In this document: positions 2 through 29,533 of the stretch, piece by piece | Numbering within the stretch: position 1 is the first letter of the stretch | Layout: each line of letters opens with the position of its first letter | DNA from: Promethearchaeota archaeon | GTDB taxonomy: Archaea; Asgardarchaeota; Lokiarchaeia; Sigyniarchaeales; SOKP01 | DNA: 32,000 bases | Direction: 5' to 3' | NCBI GenBank assembly: GCA_030606485.1 | Contig: JAUWGH010000002.1 | Location: forward strand, 90,001 to 122,000 | The notes under the pieces: generated by a model | Told to the model about the DNA's origin: nothing | Databases searched by the model: none | What the model saw: the letters and a program-made list of their open reading frames with translations, nothing else | Made by a program: the position numbers and the translations under genes

Positions 2-979
2 CCTTTTTTGAATGATGAAACTAAGTTATTTAAACTATTAGAAAATGTAGAAATTTCGGGTCAGGGAAATTTAGTTGAAGGGATTAAATTTGCGATACAA
101 ATCCTTGTTCAAGAAATGAGGAAAATCGGTGGTAAAGTTCAAAGAATATATATCATAACTGATGGAAATGTTGAAGATGTTAAACCTGATCTTGACAAAA
201 TGGTTGATATTGCACAAGGGTTAGGGATTTTTATTGATATATGTCAAATTGGTAAGAGTCTGCATTATCAAGAAAATTATCTTAAAACAATAGCTCAAAA
301 GACAAATGGTGAATTTGGTTATTTTAATAATTCGAAGGCATTAATGAGTGCAGGTAAAGCATTTGCATCAAAGAAAAATTTAAAGAAAACATCAGATTAT
401 TTTTCTTCCAATAAATCTGAAGACCACCATCCACCGTTAGTGAATGATATTGCAGTAGAATTAAGACGTCCTACGGTATCCGAAATTAAAGCAATGATGG
501 GAGGAAAAGGTCAGGAAAAATGTCAAATTTGCCATTCAATTAAAAACCCTCTCAATGGCGCTGATTTTTTTGCCAGTGGTCGCTATTGCCCTTCTTGTGG
601 CCGACCATACCATCTACATTGCGCTGCTCTTTGGGCAAAGAAGTCAGAATATTCAATTTCCATTTTTCGATGCCCCTTCTGTTATTTTTTATTGAGAGTA
701 CCTCAATCAATTATGAAAATGGTTAGTTCTATTTCAACAGAAAAAATTGGTATTAAAATTATTGATCAATCAGATAAAAAATCAACACGAATGATTAAAA
801 TACTTCCAAATAAAATCACTGAGATAGATGAGTCCTGTTCGCAATGCAGAAATATTTTTTTAGGACAATATGATGTTTACCGTTGCGAGAATTGTGGTGC
901 ATATTATCACGAACCATGCTTAAAGAAGATGTATAATGAAACTAAATCATGTAGAAACTGTGGTTCAATAATAATGTAA
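2..979 (+). CDS. vWA-domain protein with two C-terminal C4HC3 (PHD/RING-like) zinc fingers; 5' partial
   Basis: The frame is open to the window edge (CCT TTT TTG...). vWA C-terminal half: GNLVEGIKFAIQIL ... RIYIITDG ... IFIDICQIG ... LKTIAQKTNGEF. Two fingers follow: C-x2-C-x18-C-x2-C-x4-H-x2-C-x16-C-x2-C and C-x2-C-x12-C-x2-C-x4-H-x2-C-x10-C-x2-C. Confidence 0.75.
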   Translation, partial: PFLNDETKLFKLLENVEISGQGNLVEGIKFAIQILVQEMRKIGGKVQRIYIITDGNVEDVKPDLDKMVDIAQGLGIFIDICQIGKSLHYQENYLKTIAQKTNGEFGYFNNSKALMSAGKAFASKKNLKKTSDYFSSNKSEDHHPPLVNDIAVELRRPTVSEIKAMMGGKGQEKCQICHSIKNPLNGADFFASGRYCPSCGRPYHLHCAALWAKKSEYSISIFRCPFCYFLLRVPQSIMKMVSSISTEKIGIKIIDQSDKKSTRMIKILPNKITEIDESCSQCRNIFLGQYDVYRCENCGAYYHEPCLKKMYNETKSCRNCGSIIM

Positions 980-2546: not shown

Positions 2547-2719
2547 GAAAGAAAAAGAGATCGATAATCAATTTATTTTTAAAAAAAAAATAATGACTTT
2601 CTGAATTTATTTAATTTTGAATATTCTATTATTAAATAAATCATAAACTTCATATTTTTATTAATTTTATTTATCTTGTTGTTATTCTTACTGCTAATTA
2701 ATTGAAGGTGATCGCTAAA

Positions 2720-4810
2720 TTGAAAAACACTGATAAAAAAGAAAAATGGGTCTGTACTGCCGCATGGCCATACGTTAATGCTATTCCGCATTTAGGAAAT
2801 ATGATTGGAAGTGTTCTCTCTGCTGACATTTTTGCAAGATATTTAAGATTAAAGGGTGCAGAAGTTGTATTTGTATCTGGTAGTGATATGCATGGAAGTC
2901 CTGCTATTGTGGCAGCAAAAAAAATAAACACAACTCCTGAAAAATTAGCAATAAAAAATCACAATTTAATTAAAGATCTTCTTGAAAAATGGCAAATCTC
3001 TTTTGACAATTATACAGACACACATAACCCAATACATATGAAATTCGTTCAAGATTTTTACCTTGAAATTCAAAAAAATGGGTATATCTTTGAGAAAGAA
3101 ACAGATGAATTTTATTGTGAAAATGATAATTTGTTCTTACCCGACCGATTTATTGTTGGAACATGTCCTCATTGCGGATTTGATGCTGCCCGAGGCGATC
3201 AGTGTGATTCACCGGATTGTGGGAAACTTTTAACACCTATAGAATTGATAGAACCTCGATGTAATATATGTGGACAAAAACCAATAATAAAAAAAACAAA
3301 ACATTGGTATTTGGATCTTCCAAAATTAGAGAAAGAATTGGAGAAATTTATTATTGAAAATAAAATAATACCTGCAAATGCCCGAACATCATGCCTTAAT
3401 TCAATTAAGAGAGGTATACCACAGAGAGCAATTACTCGTGATTTAGAATGGGGAATTCCCGCGCCATTTAAAGGAGCAGAAGAAAAAACGATATATGTCT
3501 GGTTCGAAGCTGTATTAGGATATATCTCTGCAGTCAAAGAATGGGCAGAAAAAATAGTTGGAGATAAATCAAAATTTGAATATTTTTGGAATGATAAAAA
3601 CACTCGTTCTGTTTATTTCATCGCGAAAGATAATATTATTTTTCATTTATTGATATTTCCCGGTTTAATTATGGCATATAATAAAAATAAACCCGAAAAT
3701 GAGAAATTTGAACTTCCTTATAATGTTTCATCAACTGAATTTTTAATGTTTGAGAATGATAAATTTTCAAAATCTAGAAACATAGGAATTTGGATTGATG
3801 AGGCTTTAGAACTAGCACCTGTAGATTATTGGCGATTTAATTTAATTTTTAATCGTCCAGAGAAGAGCGATACTTCATTTTTATGGTCAGAATTTCAAAA
3901 TAATATTAATATTTTAAATGATAATTTAGGTAATTTTATACATCGGACGTTTACCTTCATTTATAGATATTTTGAGGGAATAGTTCCTCCACGAATGAAA
4001 ACAGATAACTTAGATAAAGAATTTCTTTCAAAAATCGAAAACATTGGTAAAGTTGTTGGAAATTTAATTGATCAGTTTGAGTTAAAAAAGGCATTAAAAG
4101 AAATAATATCGTGTTCTAGAGAAGCAAATATTTATTTAAGTGAAAAGGAACCTTGGCATTTAATTAAAGAAGAAAAAAATAAAGCAGGACACGTTTTAAA
4201 TATATGTATTCAATTTGTTCATAGCTTATCTATTTTATTAGAACCATTTATTCCTCTATCATCTAAAAAAATTGAAGTTTTCTTAAATTTTGAGGAAGAA
4301 AGAGAACTTACTAGATGGTCTCAAATTTCCTCTAATGCTATTAATGCCGGCCATAAAATTAAAAAACCAGAACCAATATTTCAAAAACTTGAAATAAAAG
4401 AATTACAAAATAAATTTAAAGAAATTCTTGGTCAAAAAGGAGGAAGAAAGGAATTGGTAAAAGAATCTAAAAAAACCTCCCTAATCACTTATGAAGATTT
4501 TAAAAAATTAAAGATACACACCGCCAAGATAATTGAAGCAGAATCAATTAAAAATGCGGAAAAATTATTAAAATTAAAAATCGATTTGGGATTTGAACAA
4601 AGAACGCTAGTTGCTGGAATAGCTCAGATCTACAAACCAGAAGAACTTATCGGAAAAAAAATTATTGTATTAACTAATTTACAAGCTAAAAAAATGAAAG
4701 GAATTTTATCTCAAGGAATGCTTTTAGCCGCTGTTGATGAAGACGATAATATATCTCTCTTAACTATTGACGAAAAAAAAGATATAAAATTGGGAGCAAA
4801 AATTGAATGA
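2720..4810 (+). CDS. metG: Methionyl-tRNA synthetase with C-terminal tRNA-binding (Trbp111/EMAPII-like) domain
   Basis: AWPYVNAIPHLGN (HIGH), SGSDMHG, zinc knuckles CPHC...DQCDSPDCG, YVWFEA, KFSKS (KMSKS) and a C-terminal OB domain (LVAGIAQIYKPEELIGKKIIVLTNL...SQGMLLAA). The start is moved from 2702 to the in-frame TTG at 2720 because AGGTGA (2706-2711) lies 8 nt upstream of it. Confidence 0.97.
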   Translation: MKNTDKKEKWVCTAAWPYVNAIPHLGNMIGSVLSADIFARYLRLKGAEVVFVSGSDMHGSPAIVAAKKINTTPEKLAIKNHNLIKDLLEKWQISFDNYTDTHNPIHMKFVQDFYLEIQKNGYIFEKETDEFYCENDNLFLPDRFIVGTCPHCGFDAARGDQCDSPDCGKLLTPIELIEPRCNICGQKPIIKKTKHWYLDLPKLEKELEKFIIENKIIPANARTSCLNSIKRGIPQRAITRDLEWGIPAPFKGAEEKTIYVWFEAVLGYISAVKEWAEKIVGDKSKFEYFWNDKNTRSVYFIAKDNIIFHLLIFPGLIMAYNKNKPENEKFELPYNVSSTEFLMFENDKFSKSRNIGIWIDEALELAPVDYWRFNLIFNRPEKSDTSFLWSEFQNNINILNDNLGNFIHRTFTFIYRYFEGIVPPRMKTDNLDKEFLSKIENIGKVVGNLIDQFELKKALKEIISCSREANIYLSEKEPWHLIKEEKNKAGHVLNICIQFVHSLSILLEPFIPLSSKKIEVFLNFEEERELTRWSQISSNAINAGHKIKKPEPIFQKLEIKELQNKFKEILGQKGGRKELVKESKKTSLITYEDFKKLKIHTAKIIEAESIKNAEKLLKLKIDLGFEQRTLVAGIAQIYKPEELIGKKIIVLTNLQAKKMKGILSQGMLLAAVDEDDNISLLTIDEKKDIKLGAKIE

Positions 4811-4823
4811 CTTCTATTTTAAT

Positions 4824-6068
4824 CTAAATTTTTAATATAAAATCAGGATCCAATCTTGCAACAATATGTCCCAAATCCAGTTGTAAAGTTTTAAGTATCA
4901 CACTTCGATCCCGATAAATGAATTGCATTTCGCGAGGATTTCTGAAAATCTTTTTGGCTCCAACTTTAGATTTTAGACTGCACAGAAAATATCTATTAGT
5001 TCCAATTTCTATTACCTTTTCCACATTTTCGATATCAGGGAATGCATATCCTGCACCATGAGGTAATATATTTGCATCTAATAAAATATCTATTAAATCA
5101 AATTTCTGTGCTCGTTCTAGAAAATTAAGATTTTTAATAACTGTATAAGATAAATTTGGTTTTCCTTCGAAAATATATGCTGGCATATCTGCCCTAATAC
5201 AAATTGGAAATAAATTTGACTGGGTATTTATATTCTTTGAAAGATCTGTACAATGACAACCTAAATAGATATTATTATAATCAGCTAAGAATTGATGGGA
5301 TTTATTAGATATGATTTCGAACTCATCAAATATTTTACTTCCAAAATATTCCCTTTTTTTTTCAGCAAAATGAATTGCGTAATTATGAAAATCTAAATAT
5401 TCCTTTGCTAAATTATCTTGTATTATATACTGATTCCCAAATGGTGTTTCAACAAGAGTTGCCTGTTGTTTTAATGTCTTAGATTTATCAATATATAATC
5501 CTAAACCATAGTGATCATCGCGAAATTCAGATACAGAACCATGAATAACAAACATAAACGGAGGAAAGTCAACATCTGATAAATTTTTTGTTTGATAAAT
5601 ATCAATAAAATGATTTCCTACAGAATAATCCCACTTGAGTTTAACATCTTCTAAATATAATTCCTCATTTTGAATATCTTCAATTCTTTTAATTATTTCA
5701 GAGGGGTTTGGTCTTTCATATAAACCTCCAACTAATAATCCACAACCATTGGGTTTTGTATTTAAAAAAATAAATCTATCTTGACCATTTCCCCAACTAA
5801 GTCGTCCTCCATAACTAACTCCAGAATTCCATCGAAATATATTTCTTGAAATTGTTTCGTCTGGAGTTGAAATAAATAATGCTTTTGGGTTTAAACCAAA
5901 TTTTTGTTGTATATAGTGAAACTGAGCAAGACCATATGCCATATTTTTTTTACTTAGCTGACTTGTTCCATCATTTAGTCCGGTAGAAAAAATAAATTTT
6001 TTCGCTCTTTCGAGAATATCCTTTTTACTCAAATTGGAAAAATTTTCAGATAAATCCAGCATATTCAT
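4824..6068 (-). CDS. Divergent RtcB-family RNA ligase (tRNA-splicing/repair ligase-like)
   Basis: RtcB motifs in the expected order: PD (D70), YGG, NGCG (C109), GNHF (N152/H153), IHGS (H176), EYL..A..FA..KR helix, SHQ (H258), PHGAG (H337, the guanylylated His position), and C-terminal VARL.P....K. Confidence 0.8.
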   Translation of the reverse strand: MNMLDLSENFSNLSKKDILERAKKFIFSTGLNDGTSQLSKKNMAYGLAQFHYIQQKFGLNPKALFISTPDETISRNIFRWNSGVSYGGRLSWGNGQDRFIFLNTKPNGCGLLVGGLYERPNPSEIIKRIEDIQNEELYLEDVKLKWDYSVGNHFIDIYQTKNLSDVDFPPFMFVIHGSVSEFRDDHYGLGLYIDKSKTLKQQATLVETPFGNQYIIQDNLAKEYLDFHNYAIHFAEKKREYFGSKIFDEFEIISNKSHQFLADYNNIYLGCHCTDLSKNINTQSNLFPICIRADMPAYIFEGKPNLSYTVIKNLNFLERAQKFDLIDILLDANILPHGAGYAFPDIENVEKVIEIGTNRYFLCSLKSKVGAKKIFRNPREMQFIYRDRSVILKTLQLDLGHIVARLDPDFILKI

Positions 6069-6319: not shown

Positions 6320-6925
6320 ATGAAGTTTATAGAACCCTCCTTTGAAATTGATAATAAAGGTAGAACAATGTGTAAAAATCATTCATATTATCAATTTTTT
6401 AAAATTCCACATAAAACTATATATGAAGAAAAGCAGCTTGAGAAGATATTAACTTGTAAGGCTTGTGAACATTATTACAATAATGATTGTTATTTTCCAA
6501 GTAGAGAAATTGATTTAATTGAAAGAGATCGGCAGAGAGAAAGAATTAAATGTGTATTATGTGGGAATAGAATTCATAGACTCTTAACAATCGTTCAAAG
6601 CCTTTATTATGAAGCAAAATTTAATGTTAAAGTACCTCTTATTTGCTGTGATTGTCATTTAAGTTTGAATGATCAATCATTTATGCAGAGAACAAAGTTG
6701 CGCCTGGTGGGGTTTGTAATAAGTTTTTTAATATCTCTTTATCTCATTTTCTATTTTTTTCTCGCGATTTTAGCAGTAAAAGTGTTTATCATAATTGGTT
6801 TAATTTTTCTGATATTCTGGTTTTCAATGAGCATGAAAGATATTAAGAAAATACTTTATCTCAGAGAAGGGAGAAAATATTATCAGAAATTCATTTCTCA
6901 AAGTAATGTTGATGAAGACTCCTAA
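6320..6925 (+). CDS. Hypothetical membrane protein with Cys/His-rich N-terminal domain and two C-terminal TM helices
   Basis: CKNH, CKACEH..C, CVLCG and CCDC clusters followed by two long hydrophobic segments. ATG start and normal codon usage. Confidence 0.7.
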   Translation: MKFIEPSFEIDNKGRTMCKNHSYYQFFKIPHKTIYEEKQLEKILTCKACEHYYNNDCYFPSREIDLIERDRQRERIKCVLCGNRIHRLLTIVQSLYYEAKFNVKVPLICCDCHLSLNDQSFMQRTKLRLVGFVISFLISLYLIFYFFLAILAVKVFIIIGLIFLIFWFSMSMKDIKKILYLREGRKYYQKFISQSNVDEDS

Positions 6926-10472: not shown

Positions 10473-11978
10473 ATGATTGGCATTCTACTTGCTTTTATTC
10501 CGCTTTATTGTCTCTTAATTGGATTACTCTGGTCTATTTCTTGCTCCAAATCAATTTATAGGAAGAGATTTTTAACTATTTTAATTCTAATAATTTTACT
10601 TATCAATACATCAAATATTGTTATTTTTTCATTATTTGATTTGCAATATTATGATTTTAACCTTAATTTAAATGTTGGAACCTTCGTATTATGGGAAATT
10701 ATATTTGCTTTAAGTTGTATCATATTTTATTTTTCAAAAGATGAAATGACAGGCATTTTAAATGAAAGTTTATATGATTCCTTAATAATTCTAATCATAT
10801 TTAGTCTAGTTGGAGCATCGCTTACTTCAAATGTTCTAATAACTGTAATTTTTGTTATAATTGTTTATATATCTTTAGGGTTAATTTTCTATTTTGGAAA
10901 ATATTCAAAACCTTTTAAATTATTAAGAATTTTCTTTATTTCAATAATTTTAAGTATCATTTTTCTAATTCTCGGACTATTGTTAATTTATTTTGAATTT
11001 GATTCTTTTATATTAACTGAAATTAGAAATTCTGAGTTAAATCCTGGCTTAAATCTAATAATCTCCTTATTATTTTTGTTTGGATTTGGTATCCCATGTG
11101 GAATTATTCCCTTTTCTATATATCATCTTAAGGTTTATTATCACGATTCAACATATACAACTTTATTTACAATTTCCAATTTAACATTTCCAATAATTAG
11201 TTTTATCTTATTCAAATTACTCATAGCCTTCACTTATGATTTAGTAATAAATTCATTTATAATTTTAATCATTGCAGCTGTAGGGTTAATTATATCAATA
11301 ACTTACTCTTTGACTGAGACTTTTACTGCAATTGATGGAAGATCCTTTTCAATTAAAAAGATTTTAGGATTATCTTCAAATTCTGATTTCAATATGATTT
11401 TACTAATTTCAGCTTTTATCGGATTTTTACCAACTGAATCAATAAAAATTGAATATGGGAATTTTGTTTTTTTCTTTATTTTTTGTATGATTTTAATAAA
11501 AATATTATTATTTTATAGTTTAAAACCAGTAATGCTTGAGACTTTAGATGATAATATTAAAATTTTAGGTGGATTTTGGAAAAAATATAAGATTTTTGGG
11601 ATCTTTTATTTAATCGGGGGTATTTTTCTTACAATTCCGTTTGCTTTGGGAAATATCTTAATAAATTTAATCTCAAATATTTTTACAGAATCTCTAATCG
11701 ATTTACCGCATATTTCATTTATTGGTTTTACAATTTGGGCTATTTTAATTTTTTATTTCATAATTATATTAATTTGGGTTTCTATCACGTTTAATGATAT
11801 ATTCATTGGGACTCCAAAATATTTAAAAAATAAAGATATTAGACCGATAACTAAATTAGACTACCTTCCTCTAATCTTAATTTTTATATTTTCAATATTT
11901 TTATGTATCTTTTATTTTTTCAACAATATTTTATTTATGGAAATAATAAATTTTTCTACTGAACAATTTACGCATTAA
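10473..11978 (+). CDS. Degenerate antiporter-like subunit (MnhD/MrpD/NuoN, proton-conducting membrane transporter family)
   Basis: About 14 TMs. Family landmarks are recognisable: LVGASLTSN, LLGLLLIY, GFGIPCGIIPF, IKKILGLSSNS, IKILLFY, IKILGGFWKKY and DIFIG. Confidence 0.7.
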   Translation: MIGILLAFIPLYCLLIGLLWSISCSKSIYRKRFLTILILIILLINTSNIVIFSLFDLQYYDFNLNLNVGTFVLWEIIFALSCIIFYFSKDEMTGILNESLYDSLIILIIFSLVGASLTSNVLITVIFVIIVYISLGLIFYFGKYSKPFKLLRIFFISIILSIIFLILGLLLIYFEFDSFILTEIRNSELNPGLNLIISLLFLFGFGIPCGIIPFSIYHLKVYYHDSTYTTLFTISNLTFPIISFILFKLLIAFTYDLVINSFIILIIAAVGLIISITYSLTETFTAIDGRSFSIKKILGLSSNSDFNMILLISAFIGFLPTESIKIEYGNFVFFFIFCMILIKILLFYSLKPVMLETLDDNIKILGGFWKKYKIFGIFYLIGGIFLTIPFALGNILINLISNIFTESLIDLPHISFIGFTIWAILIFYFIIILIWVSITFNDIFIGTPKYLKNKDIRPITKLDYLPLILIFIFSIFLCIFYFFNNILFMEIINFSTEQFTH

Positions 11979-13392
11979 TTTTTTTTCTCTTTAAATATAT
12001 TTCTGTAGCTTTATTAAGATCAACTGAAGTTAATGACCGTTTTAATTTATTCTGTAGTTTCTCAACATAAGTTTTACATAATTTTAAACTTAAATTTCCT
12101 TGTTTTTCTTTTATTAAATAAAATAATTCGCTCTCTAACGTATCAAATGAAGTTTTTATAATTGAATCTTCTTTAACCGTATCCAGACTAACTTTAATAT
12201 CCTGAGGTTTTAAAAATTGTTTTTCTGGCTTTTTCTCAATTTCCTTAATTGGCTTTTCTTCTGGAGTTTTTATTTTTGTTGTTTTAACTTGAGGAGGAAG
12301 AGGTTTTACTAAGACTTTTTGAGAAAATAAAATTTTTTCGGGAGCTTTAACCTTATGTTTCTCAACTTTTTTTTCTTTTTTTTCTTTTTCGATTAATTTT
12401 TCGATTTCATTAATTTTTTGCTCGATGGCTGATAAATGTATAAATTCTTGAAACTTATTGCAAATATCTTTTAAATGATTAAAATGATTAATTGCATCTA
12501 AGTATCTTTTGTTAATAACTTCATTTTCTGCAATTTTTAGTAAATCATTAAATTCTGATGGAAATTCTTTTTTTATCTTTAATTCATTTGAGATAATATT
12601 TATTAATTTGTTCTTAATTTCAGGATCTTTAAGCGAAATACCAAATGCTGGAAAATTATATTCCTTTTCTATTTGTTTTACTTCTATTGCTTCCGATAAA
12701 TCTTGTTTATTTGCAAATATTATAAGTTTTGAAAATTTTCCATCGGTTTTTTGAAGATTAATAAAATGTGTCAATGTTTTGGTTTTATAATTTGTAGAGT
12801 CAAAAACCAGCAAAATTAAATCAGCTCCACTTAAAAATTTATTCCATAAGGGAGAAAAATTATCTTCTAATTGGAAATCCCATAAATCAAAATATAAGTT
12901 ATCAATATCTATTTTATAAGATTTTGCAAAATTCATAAATATTTTGGGTTCAAAATTTAATTTTAAAAGATTTGCAATTGTGGTTTTTCCTGAACCATAA
13001 GGTCCTATTAGTGCGATTTTTGAATGAAGTTCATAATGAATTTTTTTCAAAAACTCAGTAAATTCATTTCTTTCTTTATTTTTTTCTTTAATCTCCAAAG
13101 AATTGGGAAATGAATTTTGAAATCTTTTAATAATTTTATTTAAAACTTCATTAACATAATCGCTTTTATCAACAAGATCGGCAATAATTAAATAGAAAAC
13201 ATTATTTCTTATAATGTAAAACAATTGATAATTTCCAAAAGGACGATTAAAAAACTGATTTGGTATTGGTAAATCAATAAATTCATTTAATAGGTCTTGA
13301 ACATTTTTAAATTGCTCATTATTAAAAGCTAATGCATAAGAATAACTAAAAATTATATTTTTATTGAAAATAATGTAAATTTGCCGTAGCAA
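11968..13392 (-). CDS. Longin-domain plus Arf-like small GTPase fusion with helical and Lys/Pro-rich C-terminal region
   Basis: The N-terminal ~120 aa have a longin pattern (IYII..NIIFS...FGNYQLFYII.NNVFYLIIAD). G1 GPYGSGKT, WD, the PLW switch-II motif, LVFDS and G4 NKQDL. The 3' end overlaps the convergent MnhD-like gene by 11 bp. Confidence 0.8.
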   Translation of the reverse strand: MLRQIYIIFNKNIIFSYSYALAFNNEQFKNVQDLLNEFIDLPIPNQFFNRPFGNYQLFYIIRNNVFYLIIADLVDKSDYVNEVLNKIIKRFQNSFPNSLEIKEKNKERNEFTEFLKKIHYELHSKIALIGPYGSGKTTIANLLKLNFEPKIFMNFAKSYKIDIDNLYFDLWDFQLEDNFSPLWNKFLSGADLILLVFDSTNYKTKTLTHFINLQKTDGKFSKLIIFANKQDLSEAIEVKQIEKEYNFPAFGISLKDPEIKNKLINIISNELKIKKEFPSEFNDLLKIAENEVINKRYLDAINHFNHLKDICNKFQEFIHLSAIEQKINEIEKLIEKEKKEKKVEKHKVKAPEKILFSQKVLVKPLPPQVKTTKIKTPEEKPIKEIEKKPEKQFLKPQDIKVSLDTVKEDSIIKTSFDTLESELFYLIKEKQGNLSLKLCKTYVEKLQNKLKRSLTSVDLNKATEIYLKRKKINA

Positions 13393-17831: not shown

Positions 17832-19295
17832 TTATTCTCCAATTTTAGTGCCACAAACTCCACAAAATTTGGCTTTTGCTGGAATTTTACTACCACAATA
17901 AGCACAAATCTTGGATTTTGCTGGTGTAGTTATTGAAGAACCACCGACTGCTCTTCCTTCTCTTTTACCTCCACAATTCCGACAAAATTGGTCATTCGGT
18001 TTAAGTTCTGAACCACAACGAACACAAGTAACTGATGGTGTAGGTTTTACCTTTACATATGGCGATTTAGCTGATGGTTTAGAAGGTGCTTTTGCTTTCA
18101 GTTTCTTTTGGCTTCTTCTAGCTAATACTGCTGCAATAATGACTATACAGACGATTATTCCGATTATTATCAATATTGGTCGAAAGTCAATCCATCTATC
18201 AATAGAATTAACCCCTGTATCGTAACTCACATCAAAAGTAACTGATGTGGATTCTTCTGGTGAATTCATTGGGTCGAAATAAACGAAAAAGTACCAATTA
18301 CCATCATTAGGAGCAGTGATTGAGGTTTCAGAAATCATATCGACTGCTTCCACATAATATTCTGCCTCTGTTAGGTCTATTACGTCAGTAGCAGTATAAT
18401 TAACAATAAATTCAACATCAACTGCAGTAATTTCTTTATTATACCATACGAGATAATAATCCTTAGCTCCCATAGATGCAGTAATTAATAACGATCCGCT
18501 ATCTGCCATTGTACTATTTATTTCTAATTCGAATGAATAACTATCATACGAGTTCCATTCATTTAAATTATATCCATCAGCAATGAAGAAATCTATAGGA
18601 TTACTCGCATTAAAATCATAATCAATTGTCGATCCTGGTTTTAAATATAGTGAATAGTACTCATAGCCATCAGAATGGACAAGAAATTGATCACTAAAAG
18701 ATCCAGACTTAGTTGTTAAAGGGAATGATTCAAATGGTTGATCCCAAATGGCAAAACTGATTTTACTGGGCGATGATTGGACAGAAAAAGTGATTTCATT
18801 TCCTTGATTTATATTTTCATATTCATACCAATATTCATTATAATATAATGTCTCCGTTGAACGATAATTTACAACACCAGATGTATCTGCATTACCAAAA
18901 GGAAATGCCATAGCAATACCGAGTAATGGAAGTGCTATCAATGCAAATATAATAATAAAAATTATACCTCCACCAACGTATACAGGAGAATAATACCAAG
19001 GGCGATAATAATACCCTGACCACCAGGGATGATACCACCATCTTCGGTACCAAGGTCGGTAATAAGGGTAATACCAATGTCTGTAATGTCTACCATAACG
19101 TCTATAAGATCTGTGTCTATAAGGTCCTTGTGTGCTTCTAGTTACTGTTCGTCTAGCACCTGTTCGACCAAAAGGTCTTCCACTCGTACGTCCACGACTA
19201 CTTCGAAAACTGGCACCACCCCCACGAAATCCACCACCTCTAAAACCACCGCCACCACGACTACCACCACCACGACCACCGCCACCACGCGGCAT
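17832..19295 (-). CDS. Two-TM membrane protein: N-terminal RGG/aromatic-rich tail, beta-rich extracytoplasmic domain, C-terminal double zinc ribbon
   Basis: The start is reassigned to the ATG at 19295 (MPRGGGGRGG...), which follows the upstream stop as TAA-A-ATG. TM1 is IIFIIIFALIALPLLGIAMAF and TM2 is ILIIIGIIVCIVIIAAVLA. Zinc ribbons: CVRCG..L.PNDQFCRNCG and CAYCGSKIPAKAKFCGVCG. Confidence 0.85.
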   Translation of the reverse strand: MPRGGGGRGGGSRGGGGFRGGGFRGGGASFRSSRGRTSGRPFGRTGARRTVTRSTQGPYRHRSYRRYGRHYRHWYYPYYRPWYRRWWYHPWWSGYYYRPWYYSPVYVGGGIIFIIIFALIALPLLGIAMAFPFGNADTSGVVNYRSTETLYYNEYWYEYENINQGNEITFSVQSSPSKISFAIWDQPFESFPLTTKSGSFSDQFLVHSDGYEYYSLYLKPGSTIDYDFNASNPIDFFIADGYNLNEWNSYDSYSFELEINSTMADSGSLLITASMGAKDYYLVWYNKEITAVDVEFIVNYTATDVIDLTEAEYYVEAVDMISETSITAPNDGNWYFFVYFDPMNSPEESTSVTFDVSYDTGVNSIDRWIDFRPILIIIGIIVCIVIIAAVLARRSQKKLKAKAPSKPSAKSPYVKVKPTPSVTCVRCGSELKPNDQFCRNCGGKREGRAVGGSSITTPAKSKICAYCGSKIPAKAKFCGVCGTKIGE

Positions 19296-19296
19296 T

Positions 19297-20310
19297 TTAC
19301 ACCGACACCTCAACTGTGGAAGACTTAGAAATTCCTTTTTGACGGAACAAATAGTTACGATTGATAGCCAGAAGAAATAGTAATATAGAAGTAATTGACA
19401 TAAATAATCCTATACCATCAATCAATACATTAACAGGAGGTGCTGCAGTCATAAATCCAATAATGAAAAATACCCATTCAAGAATCATAAAAACAATAAT
19501 TAACCATGGAATCACTGTTCGCACAATTCGCCCTGTTTTAATATTCCTAGCATCAGAAAAACTTGTATAAATTAAAGAGAATAAACCTATAATACCTATA
19601 ATTAGTATTGAGAAACTACAAGTAACTAATATTGCCCATATAAAACCATTCCTAGCTATTAAATTACTTAATGGAAAAAAGAAATCCGTACCACGCGCTT
19701 CAAATAGATAAAAAGTAATTTCTCCTCCTCTAATTTCAGCCATGCCAAAGAAATTCATGAGATCTGTTTGATTTGCAGAAAAGTATCCAAAAACTCCAAC
19801 AAGAGGTAAAAGGATACCTAAAACAAATGCCAATATTGAACATACACTAGTAAACCAAAATTCTGCGTTTTTGGGATCGGCAACTGGAATAAGGCCTATA
19901 TCATCTTCACTTACATCAGGAATATAATCCCAACAGTCTTGAATTGTACATACACCAATAAGCTTTTCTTTTTCAACCACTGGAACTACATTAACTTGTA
20001 AATCGCGCATTCTTGTAAATGCTTCGAAAACGGGAGTATCTAACGACACAGAAGTAATTGTATACATTGCTGAAATTACCTTTGCAGATTTTGGGTCAAT
20101 ACCTTCTGCAACTACATTCTGGACAATATCAAAATCAGCTACAACCCCAAGGATCTTATTTGACTCCTTTTCAACTACTACTAAATCCGGCACTCCCAGC
20201 TCTTTCATTTTCTTGGCAGCATCTTGAATTGAGGCGTTAGAATCAATTATACCATATTCATCATCGATAATTAAATCCCGGACAAAATATTCTTTTTTAG
20301 ATTTGCTCAT
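19297..20310 (-). CDS. CBS-pair (Bateman) domain protein with C-terminal multi-pass membrane domain
   Basis: Two CBS repeats (IDSNASIQDAAKKMKE..VPDLVVVE...ILGVVADFDIV; VSLDTPVFEAFTRMRD..VNVVPVVEKEKLIGVCTIQD) followed by about 4 TM helices. The ATG at 20310 is preferred over the TTG at 20322. Confidence 0.85.
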   Translation of the reverse strand: MSKSKKEYFVRDLIIDDEYGIIDSNASIQDAAKKMKELGVPDLVVVEKESNKILGVVADFDIVQNVVAEGIDPKSAKVISAMYTITSVSLDTPVFEAFTRMRDLQVNVVPVVEKEKLIGVCTIQDCWDYIPDVSEDDIGLIPVADPKNAEFWFTSVCSILAFVLGILLPLVGVFGYFSANQTDLMNFFGMAEIRGGEITFYLFEARGTDFFFPLSNLIARNGFIWAILVTCSFSILIIGIIGLFSLIYTSFSDARNIKTGRIVRTVIPWLIIVFMILEWVFFIIGFMTAAPPVNVLIDGIGLFMSITSILLFLLAINRNYLFRQKGISKSSTVEVSV

Positions 20311-23150: not shown

Positions 23151-24182
23151 TTAAATGGATATTTCTCGTTTCTTTAGACTCCATATACCAAAGAACAAAA
23201 GTAGTGCAGCGATTAAAACCCAAATCAATAGTGAAAAAATGGGCAAATAATAATTTGTCTTTTCTAAACCGCCGAGGTTTATTCCTTGATCAGGGTCTAT
23301 AGTTGATGTTAGACTATACACTCCAGTCAATTGTCCAAAAAGCATTTGCCAAGCTGCTGAAGGTGGGATAGCATTCAATGTTTCAATAAATAATACAAAA
23401 ACATTTCCTAAATGGTAGCCAAGGTCGAAGTGATAAATTTGGTATATTCCATAAAATTGTCCTATAAATATTCTAATTAGGAAAAATGCAATGAATGAAA
23501 AAATAACTAAAATAAATACGGTTATCGATACAGTTCTTGGTTTTTTGAATATTGAAGATAAGGCCATTGTAATACTAGTAAATAGAAATAGGATAAATAA
23601 GCTGTAAAAATATAAAGCAGTTAAGAATGGCAATAAACTGATAAAATGGTCAATATTTGCAGACTTCATTAATACACCAATCCATCCAAGAGTAAAGATG
23701 GAAATAAAGCTAATTAACATTCCATAAAAAATGACCGCTATATATTTACCTAAGAAAATTTTAATTCTACTTATCGGTTTACTCACTAAAATCAACATTG
23801 TTCCTGATTTAACTTCTTCAGCAATAAGGGACGAGCCAGAAAAACCTATCATCAACGCAAAAAAAATTCCTAGCGTGAAAAAGAATGCGGGAAAAAGTAT
23901 CGCAATACTAATTATTGTTGCAGCATGATGTGTTGAGATTAAACCGAAATCGACACCTGTTGGAAGAAATATAAAAATAGTTGGAACAAAAAGCAAAAAT
24001 ATAATTGTAATTATTAATTTTTTCAGCGAGTAAATGTCAAAAAACGTTTTCTTGATTACAATAAATATTTTTTTTGAAATATATTTACTAAACCACGATT
24101 TAATTGGTTGTAATACTTTATTGTTAAATCCATCGACTTTGGGCTTAATCTCATCAGTTAAGTTTAATTTATTGCTTTTCAT
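23151..24182 (-). CDS. ABC-2 type transporter permease
   Basis: IAEEVKSGTMLILVSKPISRIKIFLGKY (ABC-2 permease signature) and about 6 TMs. ATGA overlap with the upstream ATPase gene. Confidence 0.9.
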   Translation of the reverse strand: MKSNKLNLTDEIKPKVDGFNNKVLQPIKSWFSKYISKKIFIVIKKTFFDIYSLKKLIITIIFLLFVPTIFIFLPTGVDFGLISTHHAATIISIAILFPAFFFTLGIFFALMIGFSGSSLIAEEVKSGTMLILVSKPISRIKIFLGKYIAVIFYGMLISFISIFTLGWIGVLMKSANIDHFISLLPFLTALYFYSLFILFLFTSITMALSSIFKKPRTVSITVFILVIFSFIAFFLIRIFIGQFYGIYQIYHFDLGYHLGNVFVLFIETLNAIPPSAAWQMLFGQLTGVYSLTSTIDPDQGINLGGLEKTNYYLPIFSLLIWVLIAALLLFFGIWSLKKREISI

Positions 24183-25144
24183 TTTTTAATATCCTCCTTC
24201 TTTGCCATAATTTCCATAAAAATATCCTGTAATGATAATTCAGGCTGATGGAAGCTATATAAAGTTGCCTTATTTTTGATTAGCATTTGGGGTATTAGTT
24301 CTCTGAGTTTATCTTGATCTTTTGGTATAATATGAATTTTTCCATCGATTTCTTCAATTCTAACTTTCGAAATAAAATCTATATTTTTTAACATTTCTAA
24401 GAATTTTTCATTCATATCAGTGTCTAAAATATATAAATTACTAACATAACTTTTCTTAATATTCTTAATTGAATCAGATATGACAATTTTACCATGGTTT
24501 ATCATTGTAACATCCTCACACATCTGTTCAATTTCAGATAAAATATGACTTGAAACAAATACGCTTACTTTATCAGATAAGTCCCTAATTTTTTTAATAA
24601 CATCTGCTCTCCCAAGTGGATCTAAATTAGCCGTGGGCTCATCTAAGATTAAAACTTTAGGATCATGTATTAAGGCTGCTGCAATACCAATTTTTTGCTT
24701 CATTCCACTAGAATATTTGCTAATTTCCCGGTTTCGTGCGTCAAACAAATCAAAATAATCTAATAATTCTTGAGCCTTTCTTTTTGCTTCTTTTGATTTT
24801 AAGCCACCCAATTGCCCCATGTATATTAAATAATCTTCACCAGTCATATCTTCATAAAAAACAGGATCTTGGGGGAGAAAGCCGATTACTTGTTTAGCTG
24901 CAACAGACCCGGCTTTTTTTCCTCTTATTTTTGCCTTTCCTTCCGAAATTGAAATAGCACCTACCAACATATTATAAGTAGTTGTCTTTCCTGCTCCATT
25001 AGGTCCAAGAAATCCATGAACCCCGGGTTTTACACGGAGATCAATTTTTGATACCGCTTCTAACGCTTCTTTACCCTTTCCATAAATTTTTGTTAATCTT
25101 TCACTCCATACTTCATAATTGATTTTCAAATTTTTTTGTATCAT
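24179..25144 (-). CDS. ABC-2 type transporter ATP-binding protein
   Basis: Walker A GPNGAGKTT, Q-loop LPQD, signature YSSGMKQK, Walker B LILDEPT, H-loop SSH and C-terminal SLQDIFM. Confidence 0.95.
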   Translation of the reverse strand: MIQKNLKINYEVWSERLTKIYGKGKEALEAVSKIDLRVKPGVHGFLGPNGAGKTTTYNMLVGAISISEGKAKIRGKKAGSVAAKQVIGFLPQDPVFYEDMTGEDYLIYMGQLGGLKSKEAKRKAQELLDYFDLFDARNREISKYSSGMKQKIGIAAALIHDPKVLILDEPTANLDPLGRADVIKKIRDLSDKVSVFVSSHILSEIEQMCEDVTMINHGKIVISDSIKNIKKSYVSNLYILDTDMNEKFLEMLKNIDFISKVRIEEIDGKIHIIPKDQDKLRELIPQMLIKNKATLYSFHQPELSLQDIFMEIMAKKEDIKK

Positions 25145-28100
25145 CTACTTTTTCCCTCCTTTATCGATTTTTTTATCAATTAAAACCATTTCTTTCTCTT
25201 TTTTCCTGAATCGCTTATAAACAATATAAAGTCCAACGGCAACACCAATTATAACGAATGTCATAATAAGTTGGATGTAATTGGGAGAAACTAAGACATT
25301 CATTGTGTTTATCGCAATTATTAAGCCACTTTTATCATGCATAACAACATCTATTTTTTTCCACCCTTCACTTAGAGAAACAGAAACAATTTTAGATGTA
25401 GTAATTCCTTGACTCATACCATTTACGAAAACTTCAAAATAGTCATAATTTGAATCTGTGTCCCATTCAATGTTGAAATTATGAGAAGTTATAATTTGTT
25501 CATTAATCGGATTTAAGATATCAATTTTAAATTTAGAATTAATACAGAATATTAACTCTTCCCTGCTAATTAAAAGTTCATTTCTTCCATCTTCGTTTAA
25601 ATCAATAATTGGATATACTGAATCTACGTCTATATTAATTCTATAAAGCGTGGTACGGTTGATTACATCCAAAATTTCAGTTATTTTAACTCCCATATAT
25701 ACTTGACCACCCCATTCTGTAGTCGTTAAAGTATATGAATTACGTTCAATAAGAATCTCACTTTTGTTATCTCCGTTAACATCTCCAATATTTTCGATAG
25801 AATAGACAAATTCATATTCTTCCCAGGGATAAGGAATAGTACAACTATAAGAATCAAATTCCCAATAATATCCAGTTAATTCAATTGCATTATTTTCATC
25901 ACTGTTATAAATATCATAAAAATTCGCTGATGATCCTTTACAGTAATCCCCCCATGAACCCCCCCAGCTTTGTACTTGTAAACCAACCATTGCATCTGAT
26001 ATTCCATCATTGTTACAATCTCCAATTGATACAAATGGCATTTTGAGTTTATTTTGATCCGAAGAACTACCACTTGGCAAATATGTATTTTGTAATAGTT
26101 TCCGGAACAAAATATTAGGATTTGAATCACTAGAATTTCTACCATATATAATGATTTCCGTACCCCAAGTATAAATTTCTTGTGTTAACCCAATAGAAGA
26201 ATATAAACCTACATGATCAAGGTAATTATCTCCATCAAAATCTTCATAAGAAATTAATAGTCTATATCCAGCACCATCTGAACTAAAATCTATACTTCCC
26301 ACAGTCATAGAACCGCCATATGAAATTAAATTATTCACAGGTATTTTACTGACTATGGATCGACTATTAACGTCAATAATTTGAATATAAGTAAGCCCAA
26401 GCACTTCGTATTCAGGATCCCATTCATACGGATGAACCCATCCGTATTCCCCTATAATGATTCCAATTTTTCCATCTTTTGATATGGCTGTTTTTCCAGG
26501 AAATTCATAAAGATAATCACCAGAACCCGAAAGGAATGATGGGGTTATTTCCCATGTATAATCCATTTTAACTTTAGATTCGATATAATTATCAAAATGT
26601 GTTATTTGAGAATCCCAATGAGGATCGCTTATTAATTTATGAGAGCAATTATAATTTTCCCCAAATTGAAATTTTCCACTTATTAGCCAACTATTCAAAC
26701 TGTTATTCAACGGTATAATTTGAACATAATAATTGGGAATATATTTCGGATTAATACTCCATTTAGTGAAAACCTCTTTATTTTTAATATCAAAAAGACG
26801 TATTCTAGTGCTCCAATTTGTATATCCAAGTAAAGATAAACTTTCAACTCCAATTACTGCAACTACATCTAAATATTCATCGTCGGTACCATTAATTACT
26901 TCAAAATCTTGAATTTCTAAATTCAAAAGATTCTCACATGTGAACGAGTCTTCAGCATATTTCAATATATAACGCATATCATATTGATGTCCAAATAAAC
27001 CCCAATAGAACGCCCCAATTCCAAAATAATCAATTGTTAAATTAAAGGGTTCATTGCCATTAGTTACATTGATACGAATTCGAATGTTATGATTTGAATC
27101 TAGGAAATTTGTCAACCGTGTTTTACTTTTATAATCAAATTCTACGAAAGGATCAGCGTTTTCAGTTCCACGCGTAATGAGATACATATGATCATATTTA
27201 TAACTATTTGTTAAGTTAAAATATGTATAATTGGTTCTATCAGTAGTATTAAAACCTCCATAAAGATCAGGATAAGTATGATTATTCCAAGTGTGATTTA
27301 GATAACTCCAGTTGCATAAAACCCATTTATCACTCAATACATCATAAATTTCATATGTAAAATTATACCAATTAGAACTTGATGTATTTACAGCTACTCT
27401 AGTTTGCATTTTGAAAGCAGAAAATCTTTCAATTTGGGAAAGAGTATATTCCATAACGCCTAATGATCTATCATCGCTAAAATCTACAGGTATTGTTAGA
27501 TTAAATAAGACTTTCCATAAATTTCCAGATTGATTAGCTTTAATACTATAATTTCCTCCTTGTTTATCCCATAAATCAACTTTATTTCCTGAAGATTCAC
27601 CCCATTCGATTTGTATATCATCTACATGTAATAATGTTGAAATCTCCCATTCATTTTCCCACGAAATATCACTCCCAGAAATCCAACTACTAGGAATTTT
27701 ATTACTTATTCTATTATAAATATGAAATTCTCCAGAATCAATTTCAGTAGGATTATAATATGGTCCAGTATATTCATAGTGTCGATAAAATTTATATGGG
27801 AAACCCAATAATGAAGTGTCCCATAATATTACACCATTTGAACCATTAATTGCCAAAATTCTTGTATACTCAGATAATAAGGCTCTATAGATATTATCTG
27901 AGGTAGAACCTGAAGGAAGCGTATTTTCGCCTGATAGGGTTTTTATAATACTAGTAATTTCAGATGGAATTTTGGAGGGTATAATCCATGCGGCATAATC
28001 ATCAATATCATCATCATTTATATCTCCTATATTTAATAGATAATGTCCTTCCTTTTTTTCTGGAATATAATTCCCAGAGATGCTATAATCGACCTCATCA

Positions 28101-29533
28101 TTATCTATATAAACAATTGTTGGATTTTCTGATTCTTTATCATTAATATCATATCGATTAATTACTGATGTCTTAGGTTCCCAACCATCTTTTGCAAGTG
28201 AATACATATAAATTTGGATACTAGATGTTAAGTTAATTATTTCCGGATAAGAACCAAAATAGAATTGGTCACTTGACCAATTTAAACTAGCTGTAATATT
28301 AATTTTATCAAATCCAGATTCTGGGTTAATGTTGAATATCTTACCGTAAATTAGATATTTTTCTGGTGTTGTATAATCAAGGTCGCAAGCAATTGATATA
28401 TATTCAGTTATATTATCTTTGTTAATGTCTGGAATTTCGTATATTTTTACGCCTGATTTCATAAATATTCTTTTTACTGATGTATAAGGAGATGTTGAGA
28501 TACTGGACCAAAGTGGTATTGTGATATATGTCATATTAAAACACATAACGTTATCAAGCTCATTTCCAGATAATCCTGAAATTATTCTTAAATATCCATC
28601 ATCAGCAGCAATTAAGACATCATCTATGCCGTCATAGTCTGCGTCGCTTATAATTTTAATATCATCAATAGAATTTTGTACTTTTTCTGTGTCATAACCA
28701 AATATTGTTCTAATTGGTATGCTTGCAACATCGATAAGATGACTCCATAAATTTGTTCCATCTTTTGAATCAAATGCTCCCAATTTTCCCTCCTCTGAAC
28801 CTGCGATAATGGTATCAAATCCATTTCCATTTATATCTTCTAATACTTCTAATTTCCAAACATCGTTAGTGAAATCATTGCTATTTATCCATAATTCGTT
28901 ACCATCTTTTCCGCTTACAACAATCAGCCTAAACCATGAGGTTATAGCGATATCTGGTATAGAATCATCATTAATATCATTTATTACTTTAATATCCCAA
29001 GCATGAGTAATAAAATCATGTGTAGCATATGTTGTCGGGTCAATTCCTTCTATTGCTGGTTTAAATTTCCATATTTCCGAGCCATTGTTTGAAGTTATTG
29101 CAATTAAATTTGGATAATCTTGATCATAAGTGATAAGAACAAGATCGTAAGCAGAATCACCCGAGATGTCCTTGATTATATCAAAATTAATAACAGGTCC
29201 AAATGTTCTATAACTTATATTAATAAAACCATCTAATGAGATTGTAGCAATGCCCTCATTTGTTCCAACAACTATATATTTTTCTCCACTATCGGTAAAA
29301 TTAACTAATCTGGGTTGCATTGTAGCACCAGTACCAGGTAATCCTTTACCTAATTTCCACAGTATTGGATCGATCCCTGAATCAACCGTTTGGGTTTTAA
29401 TGCAGTTGTTATTTAAATCATTTTTAACATGATTAAATGGAAATATATTAATAAACGGCACTAACGTAATAAAAATCACAATATATGCTGCAACAATTTT
29501 TTTAGTAATTTTTGAATTCAGTTTGACCTTCAT
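25145..29533 (-). CDS. Large membrane-anchored surface protein with FG-GAP/PQQ-like beta-propeller repeats and a membrane-proximal Ig-like domain
   Basis: N-terminal hydrophobic signal/anchor. About 10 DxNxDG-type Ca2+-binding loops (DISGDSAYD, DINDDSIPD, DINGNGFDT, DADYDGIDD, DINKDNITE, GDINDDDIDD, DFDGDNYLD, GDCNNDGISD, GDVNGDNKSE, DLNEDGRNE), alternating with S.KDG..LW PQQ-like motifs. C-terminal TM followed by KRFRKK. Confidence 0.85.
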   Translation of the reverse strand: MKVKLNSKITKKIVAAYIVIFITLVPFINIFPFNHVKNDLNNNCIKTQTVDSGIDPILWKLGKGLPGTGATMQPRLVNFTDSGEKYIVVGTNEGIATISLDGFINISYRTFGPVINFDIIKDISGDSAYDLVLITYDQDYPNLIAITSNNGSEIWKFKPAIEGIDPTTYATHDFITHAWDIKVINDINDDSIPDIAITSWFRLIVVSGKDGNELWINSNDFTNDVWKLEVLEDINGNGFDTIIAGSEEGKLGAFDSKDGTNLWSHLIDVASIPIRTIFGYDTEKVQNSIDDIKIISDADYDGIDDVLIAADDGYLRIISGLSGNELDNVMCFNMTYITIPLWSSISTSPYTSVKRIFMKSGVKIYEIPDINKDNITEYISIACDLDYTTPEKYLIYGKIFNINPESGFDKINITASLNWSSDQFYFGSYPEIINLTSSIQIYMYSLAKDGWEPKTSVINRYDINDKESENPTIVYIDNDEVDYSISGNYIPEKKEGHYLLNIGDINDDDIDDYAAWIIPSKIPSEITSIIKTLSGENTLPSGSTSDNIYRALLSEYTRILAINGSNGVILWDTSLLGFPYKFYRHYEYTGPYYNPTEIDSGEFHIYNRISNKIPSSWISGSDISWENEWEISTLLHVDDIQIEWGESSGNKVDLWDKQGGNYSIKANQSGNLWKVLFNLTIPVDFSDDRSLGVMEYTLSQIERFSAFKMQTRVAVNTSSSNWYNFTYEIYDVLSDKWVLCNWSYLNHTWNNHTYPDLYGGFNTTDRTNYTYFNLTNSYKYDHMYLITRGTENADPFVEFDYKSKTRLTNFLDSNHNIRIRINVTNGNEPFNLTIDYFGIGAFYWGLFGHQYDMRYILKYAEDSFTCENLLNLEIQDFEVINGTDDEYLDVVAVIGVESLSLLGYTNWSTRIRLFDIKNKEVFTKWSINPKYIPNYYVQIIPLNNSLNSWLISGKFQFGENYNCSHKLISDPHWDSQITHFDNYIESKVKMDYTWEITPSFLSGSGDYLYEFPGKTAISKDGKIGIIIGEYGWVHPYEWDPEYEVLGLTYIQIIDVNSRSIVSKIPVNNLISYGGSMTVGSIDFSSDGAGYRLLISYEDFDGDNYLDHVGLYSSIGLTQEIYTWGTEIIIYGRNSSDSNPNILFRKLLQNTYLPSGSSSDQNKLKMPFVSIGDCNNDGISDAMVGLQVQSWGGSWGDYCKGSSANFYDIYNSDENNAIELTGYYWEFDSYSCTIPYPWEEYEFVYSIENIGDVNGDNKSEILIERNSYTLTTTEWGGQVYMGVKITEILDVINRTTLYRINIDVDSVYPIIDLNEDGRNELLISREELIFCINSKFKIDILNPINEQIITSHNFNIEWDTDSNYDYFEVFVNGMSQGITTSKIVSVSLSEGWKKIDVVMHDKSGLIIAINTMNVLVSPNYIQLIMTFVIIGVAVGLYIVYKRFRKKEKEMVLIDKKIDKGGKK

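Follow-up and report, generated by a model that had tools for sequence, protein, structure and literature searches.

A compact, deeply diverged family of RtcB-superfamily proteins in Asgard archaea with a predicted nucleotidyl-transfer core

The stretch of DNA analyzed here (the window, 32,000 nucleotides [nt]) covers positions 90,001 to 122,000 of contig JAUWGH010000002.1 in the genome assembly of a Promethearchaeota archaeon (GCA_030606485.1). On its minus strand, at positions 4824–6068, lies an open reading frame (ORF) whose product, P0001, truly belongs to the RtcB superfamily, but as a very distant relative that falls outside the Pfam family PF01139. No enzyme class other than RtcB is known to join 3′-phosphate to 5′-OH ends via histidine-guanosine monophosphate, and RtcB has so far comprised one Pfam family. 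P0001 belongs to a second, deeply diverged family of this superfamily, which the curated databases do not model. Judging from its residues, we lean toward the view that P0001 is an active histidine-nucleotidylating, phosphomonoester-activating enzyme. It is not the tRNA-splicing ligase of the cell. The ORF is a real gene under purifying selection. All 28 close orthologues aligned from Met1 to the last residue, with starts and stops in register, and comparison with three same-genus orthologues gave a ratio of nonsynonymous to synonymous substitution rates (dN/dS) of 0.12–0.25. The coordinates of the gene, its predicted catalytic codons and its two neighbors are listed in Table 1.

The relationship to RtcB was recovered by family profiles and by structure. 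P0001 alone matched nothing in Pfam or NCBIfam, even at E ≤ 10, and nothing in PADLOC when this single protein was submitted; phmmer against the PDB sequences returned only noise; and hhalign of a close-orthologue profile against one single RtcB sequence gave a probability of 1.9%. A whole-genome PF01139 search picked up only the canonical rtcB gene on contig C6 and not the gene for P0001, which did not reach the Pfam gathering threshold (27 bits), and in this genome the PF01139 profile and the compact-family profile each missed the other's protein. These failures of sequence-only searches reflect limits of the methods, not absence of homology. With a profile built from 60 diverse members of the family, RtcB chains were the four best matches in the PDB (E = 7e-4, 0.014, 0.014 and 0.015). 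The collinear blocks matched NHF with G-N202-H203-F, H176 with His234, H-G-x-G with the His404 motif and the C-terminal VARL-P....K with the segment of Lys480, and also included an A..Y....A..F...R helix; the family profile also aligned HGgGy to HGAGR of Thermus thermophilus RtcB. Comparison of the family profile with 31 Asgard RtcBs by hhalign yielded an E of 7e-5 and a probability of 62% over a central block. Weak PF01139 matches were found in five of the 60 family members (best E, 0.007), and no other family recurred. In the N-terminal half, the register came from one short profile match, GVSYGG to GFCIGG (G-x-x-x-G-G; E, 0.06), and the spacing from this GG motif to the Cys, 21 residues in P0001 and 22 in canonical RtcB, puts C109 on the canonical Cys. 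Finally, the structural alignment of P0001 to the RtcB fold spans residues 15–414, in agreement with the RtcB fold that an earlier note, made from this sequence alone, had assumed. Reference structures of canonical RtcB are those of Pyrococcus horikoshii PH1602 (1uc2, 4dwq and 4dwr), T. thermophilus TTHA1785 (2epg) and human RTCB (7p3b and 8odo).

An exhaustive search retrieved 246 clusters of the compact family at 50% identity with E ≤ 1e-3 (81 clusters at E ≤ 1e-30), extending down to approximately 25% identity, and clustering at 90% gave 539 homologues of near-identical length. None of the family clusters was named, and none had a precomputed Pfam family. The match to the family profile in the genome of the window had an E of 6e-152. 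The compact family was detected in 142 of 301 Asgard genomes and in 55 of the 90 of high quality. In the family-level clade of the window (f1), 63 of 68 genomes carried it; outside f1 its distribution was patchy, and some Asgard genomes had two or three paralogues. The NCBI labels, from which alone the organism names of the bacterial members are taken, indicate Asgard metagenome-assembled genomes together with bacterial ones from Anaerolineae/Chloroflexota, Aerophobetes and Armatimonadetes. As a lead, the structural neighbors in ESM-Atlas included an archaeal cluster of 366 members (TM, 0.88), among which Altiarchaeota was the commonest label. In a maximum-likelihood tree, P0001 fell in a fully supported clade of f1 orthologues nested in a main Asgard clade with 97% support; the sister group includes bacterial sequences. 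In the searchable literature, we found no description of a divergent Asgard RtcB-like family or of a module of RtcB with an HD-domain protein, although a mention in an earlier RNA-repair survey is possible.

The earlier note had also proposed that P0001 represents a distinct RtcB subfamily rather than a tRNA-splicing ligase. The lack of a PF01139 match in the protein agrees with this, as does the remainder of the genome (3.75 Mb, 13 contigs, 100% complete). Canonical RtcB is encoded there in one copy, on contig C6 (PF01139; E, 4e-174), and the gene in the window is thus not the sole rtcB. The sole archease gene (PF01951; E, 1e-41; C6:118531–118947) abuts canonical rtcB tail-to-tail, and RtcA is encoded on contig C2. 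Since canonical RtcB, archease and RtcA are all encoded elsewhere in the genome, P0001 is a second, non-canonical paralogue. In archaea, archease commonly adjoins RtcB in the tRNA-splicing ligase module (PMC3973293); the gene for P0001 has no such partner, the archease being on C6 instead. As had been noted, archease, RtcA and RtcR are all absent from the window. Of the 121 Asgard genomes at least 90% complete, 119 contained canonical RtcB, with or without the compact family, which is patchy by comparison. P0001 is approximately 75 residues shorter than canonical RtcB, with approximately 60 of them missing between the Cys and NHF. Its short Cys-to-His spacing was confirmed, C109 and H153 being 44 residues apart, as compared with 105 residues (C107–H212) in the canonical RtcB of the same genome.

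Extra copies beside a housekeeping RtcB are likewise represented by Myxococcus xanthus RtcB1–3 and the Escherichia coli RtcB2–PrfH module for ribosome repair. To our knowledge, M. xanthus RtcB1–3 and E. coli RtcB2 fall within PF01139 as normal members and carry all of the metal- and strand-binding residues, whereas the compact family is undetected by PF01139, has lost several of these residues and has no PrfH, RtcA or RtcR neighbor in the loci examined. These paralogues vary in their ligation and capping activities (PMC10630183; PMC13166195), a precedent for altered substrates or reaction outcomes in extra RtcB copies, and the M. xanthus paralogues demonstrate that reaction outcomes differ within the superfamily (PMC10630183).

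Two side observations concern canonical RtcB itself. In the genome of the window, the canonical rtcB and archease genes (C6:118531–120419) are convergent with abutting 3′ ends and do not form a co-directional operon. In Asgard genomes G053, G035, G026, G074, G157 and G003, the canonical RtcB ORFs are 973–1015 aa (amino acids) long, and their PF01139 match is split within one frame into 1–50(57) and approximately 45–426, a pattern that suggests an intein-sized insertion of approximately 500 aa near the N terminus.

Conservation was counted in 60 diverse family sequences with a mean column identity of 30%. Direct indexing located each of the catalytic landmarks listed in the earlier note (D70, C109, N152/H153, H176, H258, H337 and K413) at its claimed position, and bore out HGAGY in place of HGAGR and PNGC at the metal motif. 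LGCHCT (269) and IRADMP (291) were also where they had been reported, but their proposed equivalence to HRKGA and PGSMG comes from a low-confidence global profile alignment. G87, H153, F154, H176, H258, G270 and H337 were present in 60 of 60 sequences, P336 in 59, N152, D33, G338 and G340 in 58, R239 and R386 in 57, and C109 and D70 in 56. Because H153, F154, H176, H258 and H337 are invariant across 60 diverse relatives, the landmarks are not due to chance. K413 is invariant in the 28 close orthologues and is Lys in 35 and Arg in eight of the 60 sequences of the wide family. The family signature, which consists of D33, P-D70, G87, P-N-x-C109-G, D147, N-H-F, H176, E181, T-P-x-G211, R239, H258, G270, P-H337-G-x-G and Y-R386, is present in P0001 in its entirety.

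The roles of the corresponding residues have been described for RtcB: Mn1 is bound by Cys98, His234 and His329, and Mn2 by Asp95, Cys98 and His203 (PMC8051266); Lys480 and Glu206 make the guanine-specific contacts (PMC9745838); and Asn202 contacts both the 5′-OH and the phosphate of guanosine triphosphate (GTP) (PMC8051266, PMC9745838). The Mn1 ligand set appears to be matched by C109, H176 and H258, where H176 was placed by confident alignment, and C109 and H258 by spacing or low-confidence global alignment. The register of D70 was supported by the GVSYGG match and by the structural alignment. The counterpart of Asn202, N152, is retained, and so is the predicted His nucleophile in its H-G-A-G context (P-H-G-A-G-Y).

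Table 1. The P0001 gene, its predicted catalytic codons and the adjacent genes. Positions are those of the window.
Feature	Positions	Strand	Remarks
Compact RtcB-fold protein gene (P0001)	4824..6068	-	414 aa; ATG start; stop codon within span
D70 codon (STPDET)	5859..5861	-	Counterpart of the P-D-x-H Asp (D74 in the canonical RtcB of the genome); Thr72 replaces the His of the motif; D in 56/60
P106-N107-G108-C109 codons	5742..5753	-	Predicted bridging metal Cys; Mn2 Asp position is Pro/Asn
N152-H153 codons (GNHF)	5610..5615	-	PhoRtcB Asn202/His203; profile-to-PDB and hhalign alignments put sNHF on GSGNHF
H176 codon	5541..5543	-	PhoRtcB His234, Mn1 ligand, by alignment; H in 60/60
H258 codon	5295..5297	-	Probable PhoRtcB His329, Mn1 ligand; low-confidence global profile alignment to D-V-A-H-N segment
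H337-G-A-G-Y341 codons	5046..5060	-	Predicted nucleotidylated His (PhoRtcB His404, EcoRtcB His337)
K413 codon	4830..4832	-	PhoRtcB Lys480 (guanine O6 contact); C-terminal alignment VARL-P....K
metG (methionyl-tRNA synthetase)	2702..4810	+	PF09334, E 2e-141; convergent neighbor
201-aa Cys-rich protein	6320..6925	+	Divergent neighbor; hydrophobic C-terminal half; 251-nt shared intergenic region

In the mechanism that we consider for P0001, C109, H153, H176 and H258 would form a binuclear Mn2+ site, with N107 or another residue in place of the Asp. This site would bind a nucleoside triphosphate, and His337 would attack the alpha-phosphate to yield a covalent enzyme–His–nucleoside monophosphate (NMP). 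Since K413 and F154 are kept, GTP would be favored in the window's clade. The NMP would then be passed to a phosphomonoester, giving an activated, pyrophosphate-linked intermediate that either reacts with a hydroxyl nucleophile or persists as a cap; binding of a second strand would have to differ from that in RtcB. We infer the metal binding, the nucleotidylation and the substrate by homology to RtcB. The fold, the distant homology, the paralogy, the residue conservation and the purifying selection are taken here as established, whereas substrate specificity beyond the general mechanism is a best guess. That guess, which we put forward tentatively because every characterized relative uses such ends, is a polynucleotide 3′-phosphate or 2′,3′-cyclic phosphate end, which would be repaired or capped apart from tRNA splicing.

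Several observations weigh against this reading. The Mn2 ligand Asp95 is absent: its position is occupied by P106 (45 of 60 sequences) and followed by N107 (53 of 60, with Asp in three), and of the Mn2 ligand set, His203 corresponds to H153. RtcB contacts the 5′-OH strand through Arg238, Arg190 and Gln194 (PMC8051266). The counterpart of Arg238, position 180, is a mixture of Ser, Pro, Arg and Lys with no conservation, Glu140 and Leu144 occupy the sites of Arg190 and Gln194 (12 and 8 residues, respectively, ahead of N152), and the deletion between the Cys and NHF leaves the 5′-OH-strand contacts either unconserved or inside the deleted segment. Glu206, which contacts guanine N1/N2, is replaced by Asp156 and varies among Asn, Glu and Asp across the family. 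P0001 is near neutral (net charge, −1; isoelectric point [pI], 6.8), as opposed to the basic canonical paralogue of the same genome (+13; pI, 9.1). The proposed mapping of C109, D70 and H258 relies on spacing and on an alignment of low confidence. In none of the loci examined does an RNA-repair gene adjoin the family gene, and PrfH, RtcA and RtcR in particular were not found as neighbors. Lastly, genes of a bacterial clade lie in or beside chemosensory loci (L062:4001–6598, L063:4001–6700 and L064:1415–8712) that encode CheB, CheW, MCP, CheR and response regulators. A multi-pass membrane protein of approximately 458 aa, which has no Pfam match and shares 31–46% identity between loci, adjoins the gene there (in L064, approximately 2 kb downstream). 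A further substitution is that of Asn330 by Gln259 (Gln in 42 of 60). In canonical Asgard RtcBs, the counterparts of Asp95, Arg238, Arg190, Gln194, Glu206 and Asn330 are all conserved in 31 of 31 sequences. As a whole, the retained and lost residues suggest an intact nucleotidyl-transfer core with a remodeled second metal site and an altered way of holding the substrate or substrates.

The relatives of P0001 in other lineages have more distinctive neighbors. Immediately upstream of the gene in eight of 15 loci from other Asgard families is a gene for an HD phosphohydrolase of approximately 215 aa (PF01966; E, 6.5e-15). Examples of the HD gene, from Asgard and bacterial-type contigs alike, are L016:623–1282, L061:3338–3988 and L065:5249–6637, all on the plus strand, the last of which encodes a tandem HD–HD protein. 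The HD protein of L061, where the RtcB-like gene belongs to the bacterial sister group, is 46% identical to the Asgard HD protein (E, 4e-71). The HD partner, and not P0001, resembles YedJ/YpgQ-type hydrolases (PDB 3gw7, 2pq7 and 5dqv; E, 5e-10 to 4e-6), but it forms an orthologous group distinct from them, which includes the L061 and Asgard copies. Of 301 Asgard genomes, 36 contained the HD orthologue, and all of these except G162 (35 genomes) had a match to the RtcB-like profile as well. At E ≤ 1e-25, the orthologue occurred in 0 of 68 genomes of f1, 6 of 7 of f2, 16 of 76 of f9 and 13 of 21 of f24. In f9, 17 genomes have the RtcB-like gene; the 16 genomes with the HD gene all belong to this set, and 59 genomes have neither. 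These co-occurrence counts come from related genomes, which are not independent samples. With this HD query, no orthologue was found in the genome of the window, where the best match was 28% identical, YedJ-like and 285 kb away. At one locus, L061, a third co-directional gene (L061:5194–6426, plus strand) encodes a 410-aa protein of the TIGR00375 family (E, 2.6e-58, below the curated cut-off; Pfam label, MJ0043_C).

Domain fusions were also observed. An APH-type kinase (PF01636; E, 3e-20) is fused to the RtcB-like domain in a 743-aa protein (L086:5001–7232, plus strand) and in a 748-aa protein from a second assembly. The fusion gene lies in a co-directional cluster that resembles one for small-molecule biosynthesis and also encodes HAD hydrolases, a short-chain dehydrogenase, an aminotransferase and two radical-SAM enzymes. 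As leads, the ESM-Atlas structural neighbors included a 936-aa cluster, of which 80% of the members carry a Metallophos domain, and an 843-aa fusion cluster; a sequence search for longer family proteins (810–2310 aa) found none, which is weak evidence.

These contexts bear on the substrate. It is possible, but rather unlikely in our view, that the same His–NMP and two-metal chemistry acts on a phosphomonoester other than a polynucleotide end, such as a phosphorylated small molecule, a nucleotide or a cofactor precursor, in which case P0001 would be a GTP-driven phosphomonoester–alcohol ligase or a nucleotidyltransferase. The loss of all known 5′-OH-strand contacts, the near-neutral charge and the contexts of the relatives nevertheless put such a substrate seriously in play. 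Those contexts are the APH-kinase fusion, seen in two independent assemblies and in a biosynthetic-type cluster, the recurrent YedJ/YpgQ-like HD partner and, as a lead, the Metallophos-rich 936-aa cluster. However, they come from distant branches (25–35% identity), and the window's clade has no informative neighbors. Furthermore, identities of 40–47% across Asgard archaea and bacteria are no less compatible with RNA or another universal substrate, and the characterized superfamily members act without exception on nucleic acid ends. For the compact family as a whole, the corresponding proposal, which we hold to be doubtful, is that its members are not RNA ligases but would apply RtcB chemistry to non-polynucleotides, in conjunction with the HD phosphohydrolase, the APH kinase and possibly metallophosphoesterase fusions.

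Readings that deny ligation or catalysis to P0001 appear less likely, because the nucleophile and the ligands are invariant. The protein might perform part of the RtcB reaction without sealing, as a 2′,3′-cyclic phosphodiesterase or in the removal of an NppG cap, and thus be a hydrolase instead of a ligase. Strand-joining mutants of EcoRtcB such as N167A still hydrolyze or de-guanylylate intermediates (PMC8051266), and P0001 lacks the counterpart of Arg238, which speeds the sealing step approximately 200-fold. The P-H-G-x-G context of the nucleophile, kept in 59–60 of 60 sequences, would be needless for simple hydrolysis, and we regard this account as improbable. Even lower is the probability of a catalytically dead pseudoenzyme that uses the RtcB fold as a scaffold or binding protein. 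The loss of the Mn2 Asp and of motifs of the HRKGA and PGSMG type, and the lack of Pfam-level similarity, would be compatible with such a protein, but pseudoenzymes normally lose metal-ligand and nucleophile residues, whereas in this family four metal-ligand positions and the nucleophile His are invariant or nearly so and the dN/dS values are low. That P0001 is simply the ordinary tRNA-splicing RtcB of the organism, highly diverged, could be suggested by its fold and its position beside a tRNA synthetase gene. This reading is refuted by the canonical RtcB abutting archease in the same genome and by the near-universal presence of canonical RtcB in Asgard genomes regardless of the compact family; moreover, the adjacency to metG is confined to one family-level clade.

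The tail-to-tail arrangement with metG reported in the earlier note was found as described, the two genes being convergent with a gap of 13 nt. It was confined to the family-level clade of the window (loci L013, L015, L017, L021, L054–56 and L085), recurring in same-genus genomes and in other f1 loci at 55–56% identity, and metG was absent beside the gene in 15 loci of other Asgard families (40–46% identity). Given this distribution, the adjacency is explained by inherited synteny. metG was ruled out as a functional partner, since it is convergent and occurs there in only one family-level clade. The divergently transcribed gene on the other side was likewise ruled out as a partner, being found beside the P0001 gene only within the genus. 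Its 201-aa product has N-terminal Cys pairs that are zinc-ribbon-like, has no Pfam or PADLOC match and is conserved in the genus only. Other f1 genomes have an unrelated gene for 211–216 aa in its place, and the upstream neighbor varies within the clade.

Elsewhere in the window, a 474-aa ORF (11968–13392, minus strand) combines a longin-like domain (PF13774, weak match) with a small GTPase domain of the Arf/Roc/Ras type, a typical eukaryote-like signature of Asgard archaea. A zinc-finger-rich protein with Prok-RING, C1 and PHD-like matches just below the cut-offs is encoded at 8–979 (plus strand), and another, of 493 aa and ending in double zinc ribbons, at 17832–19313 (minus strand). A 1462-aa ORF with a faint beta-propeller match (25145–29533, minus strand) immediately precedes, in the same orientation, the genes of an ABC-2 transporter, its ATPase (24179–25144) and its permease (23151–24182). 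Between 10001 and 16000, the G+C content is 0.22–0.24, as compared with approximately 0.30 outside this segment of the window, and the ORFs are mostly without a Pfam family.

The RtcB superfamily thus contains a second family, present in approximately 60% of the sampled high-quality Asgard genomes and in several bacterial phyla. In Asgard archaea, the gene is highly conserved, yet standard annotation calls it "hypothetical". In lineages other than that of the window, its tight co-inheritance with the HD phosphohydrolase is a starting point for finding its function. If the members are active, they would widen the chemistry or the substrate range of the superfamily, and self-nucleotidylation of H337 is a testable target. 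Should their substrates prove to be other than polynucleotides, the range of the RtcB superfamily, in Asgard archaea as well as in several phyla of bacteria, would come to include the metabolism of small molecules or nucleotides.

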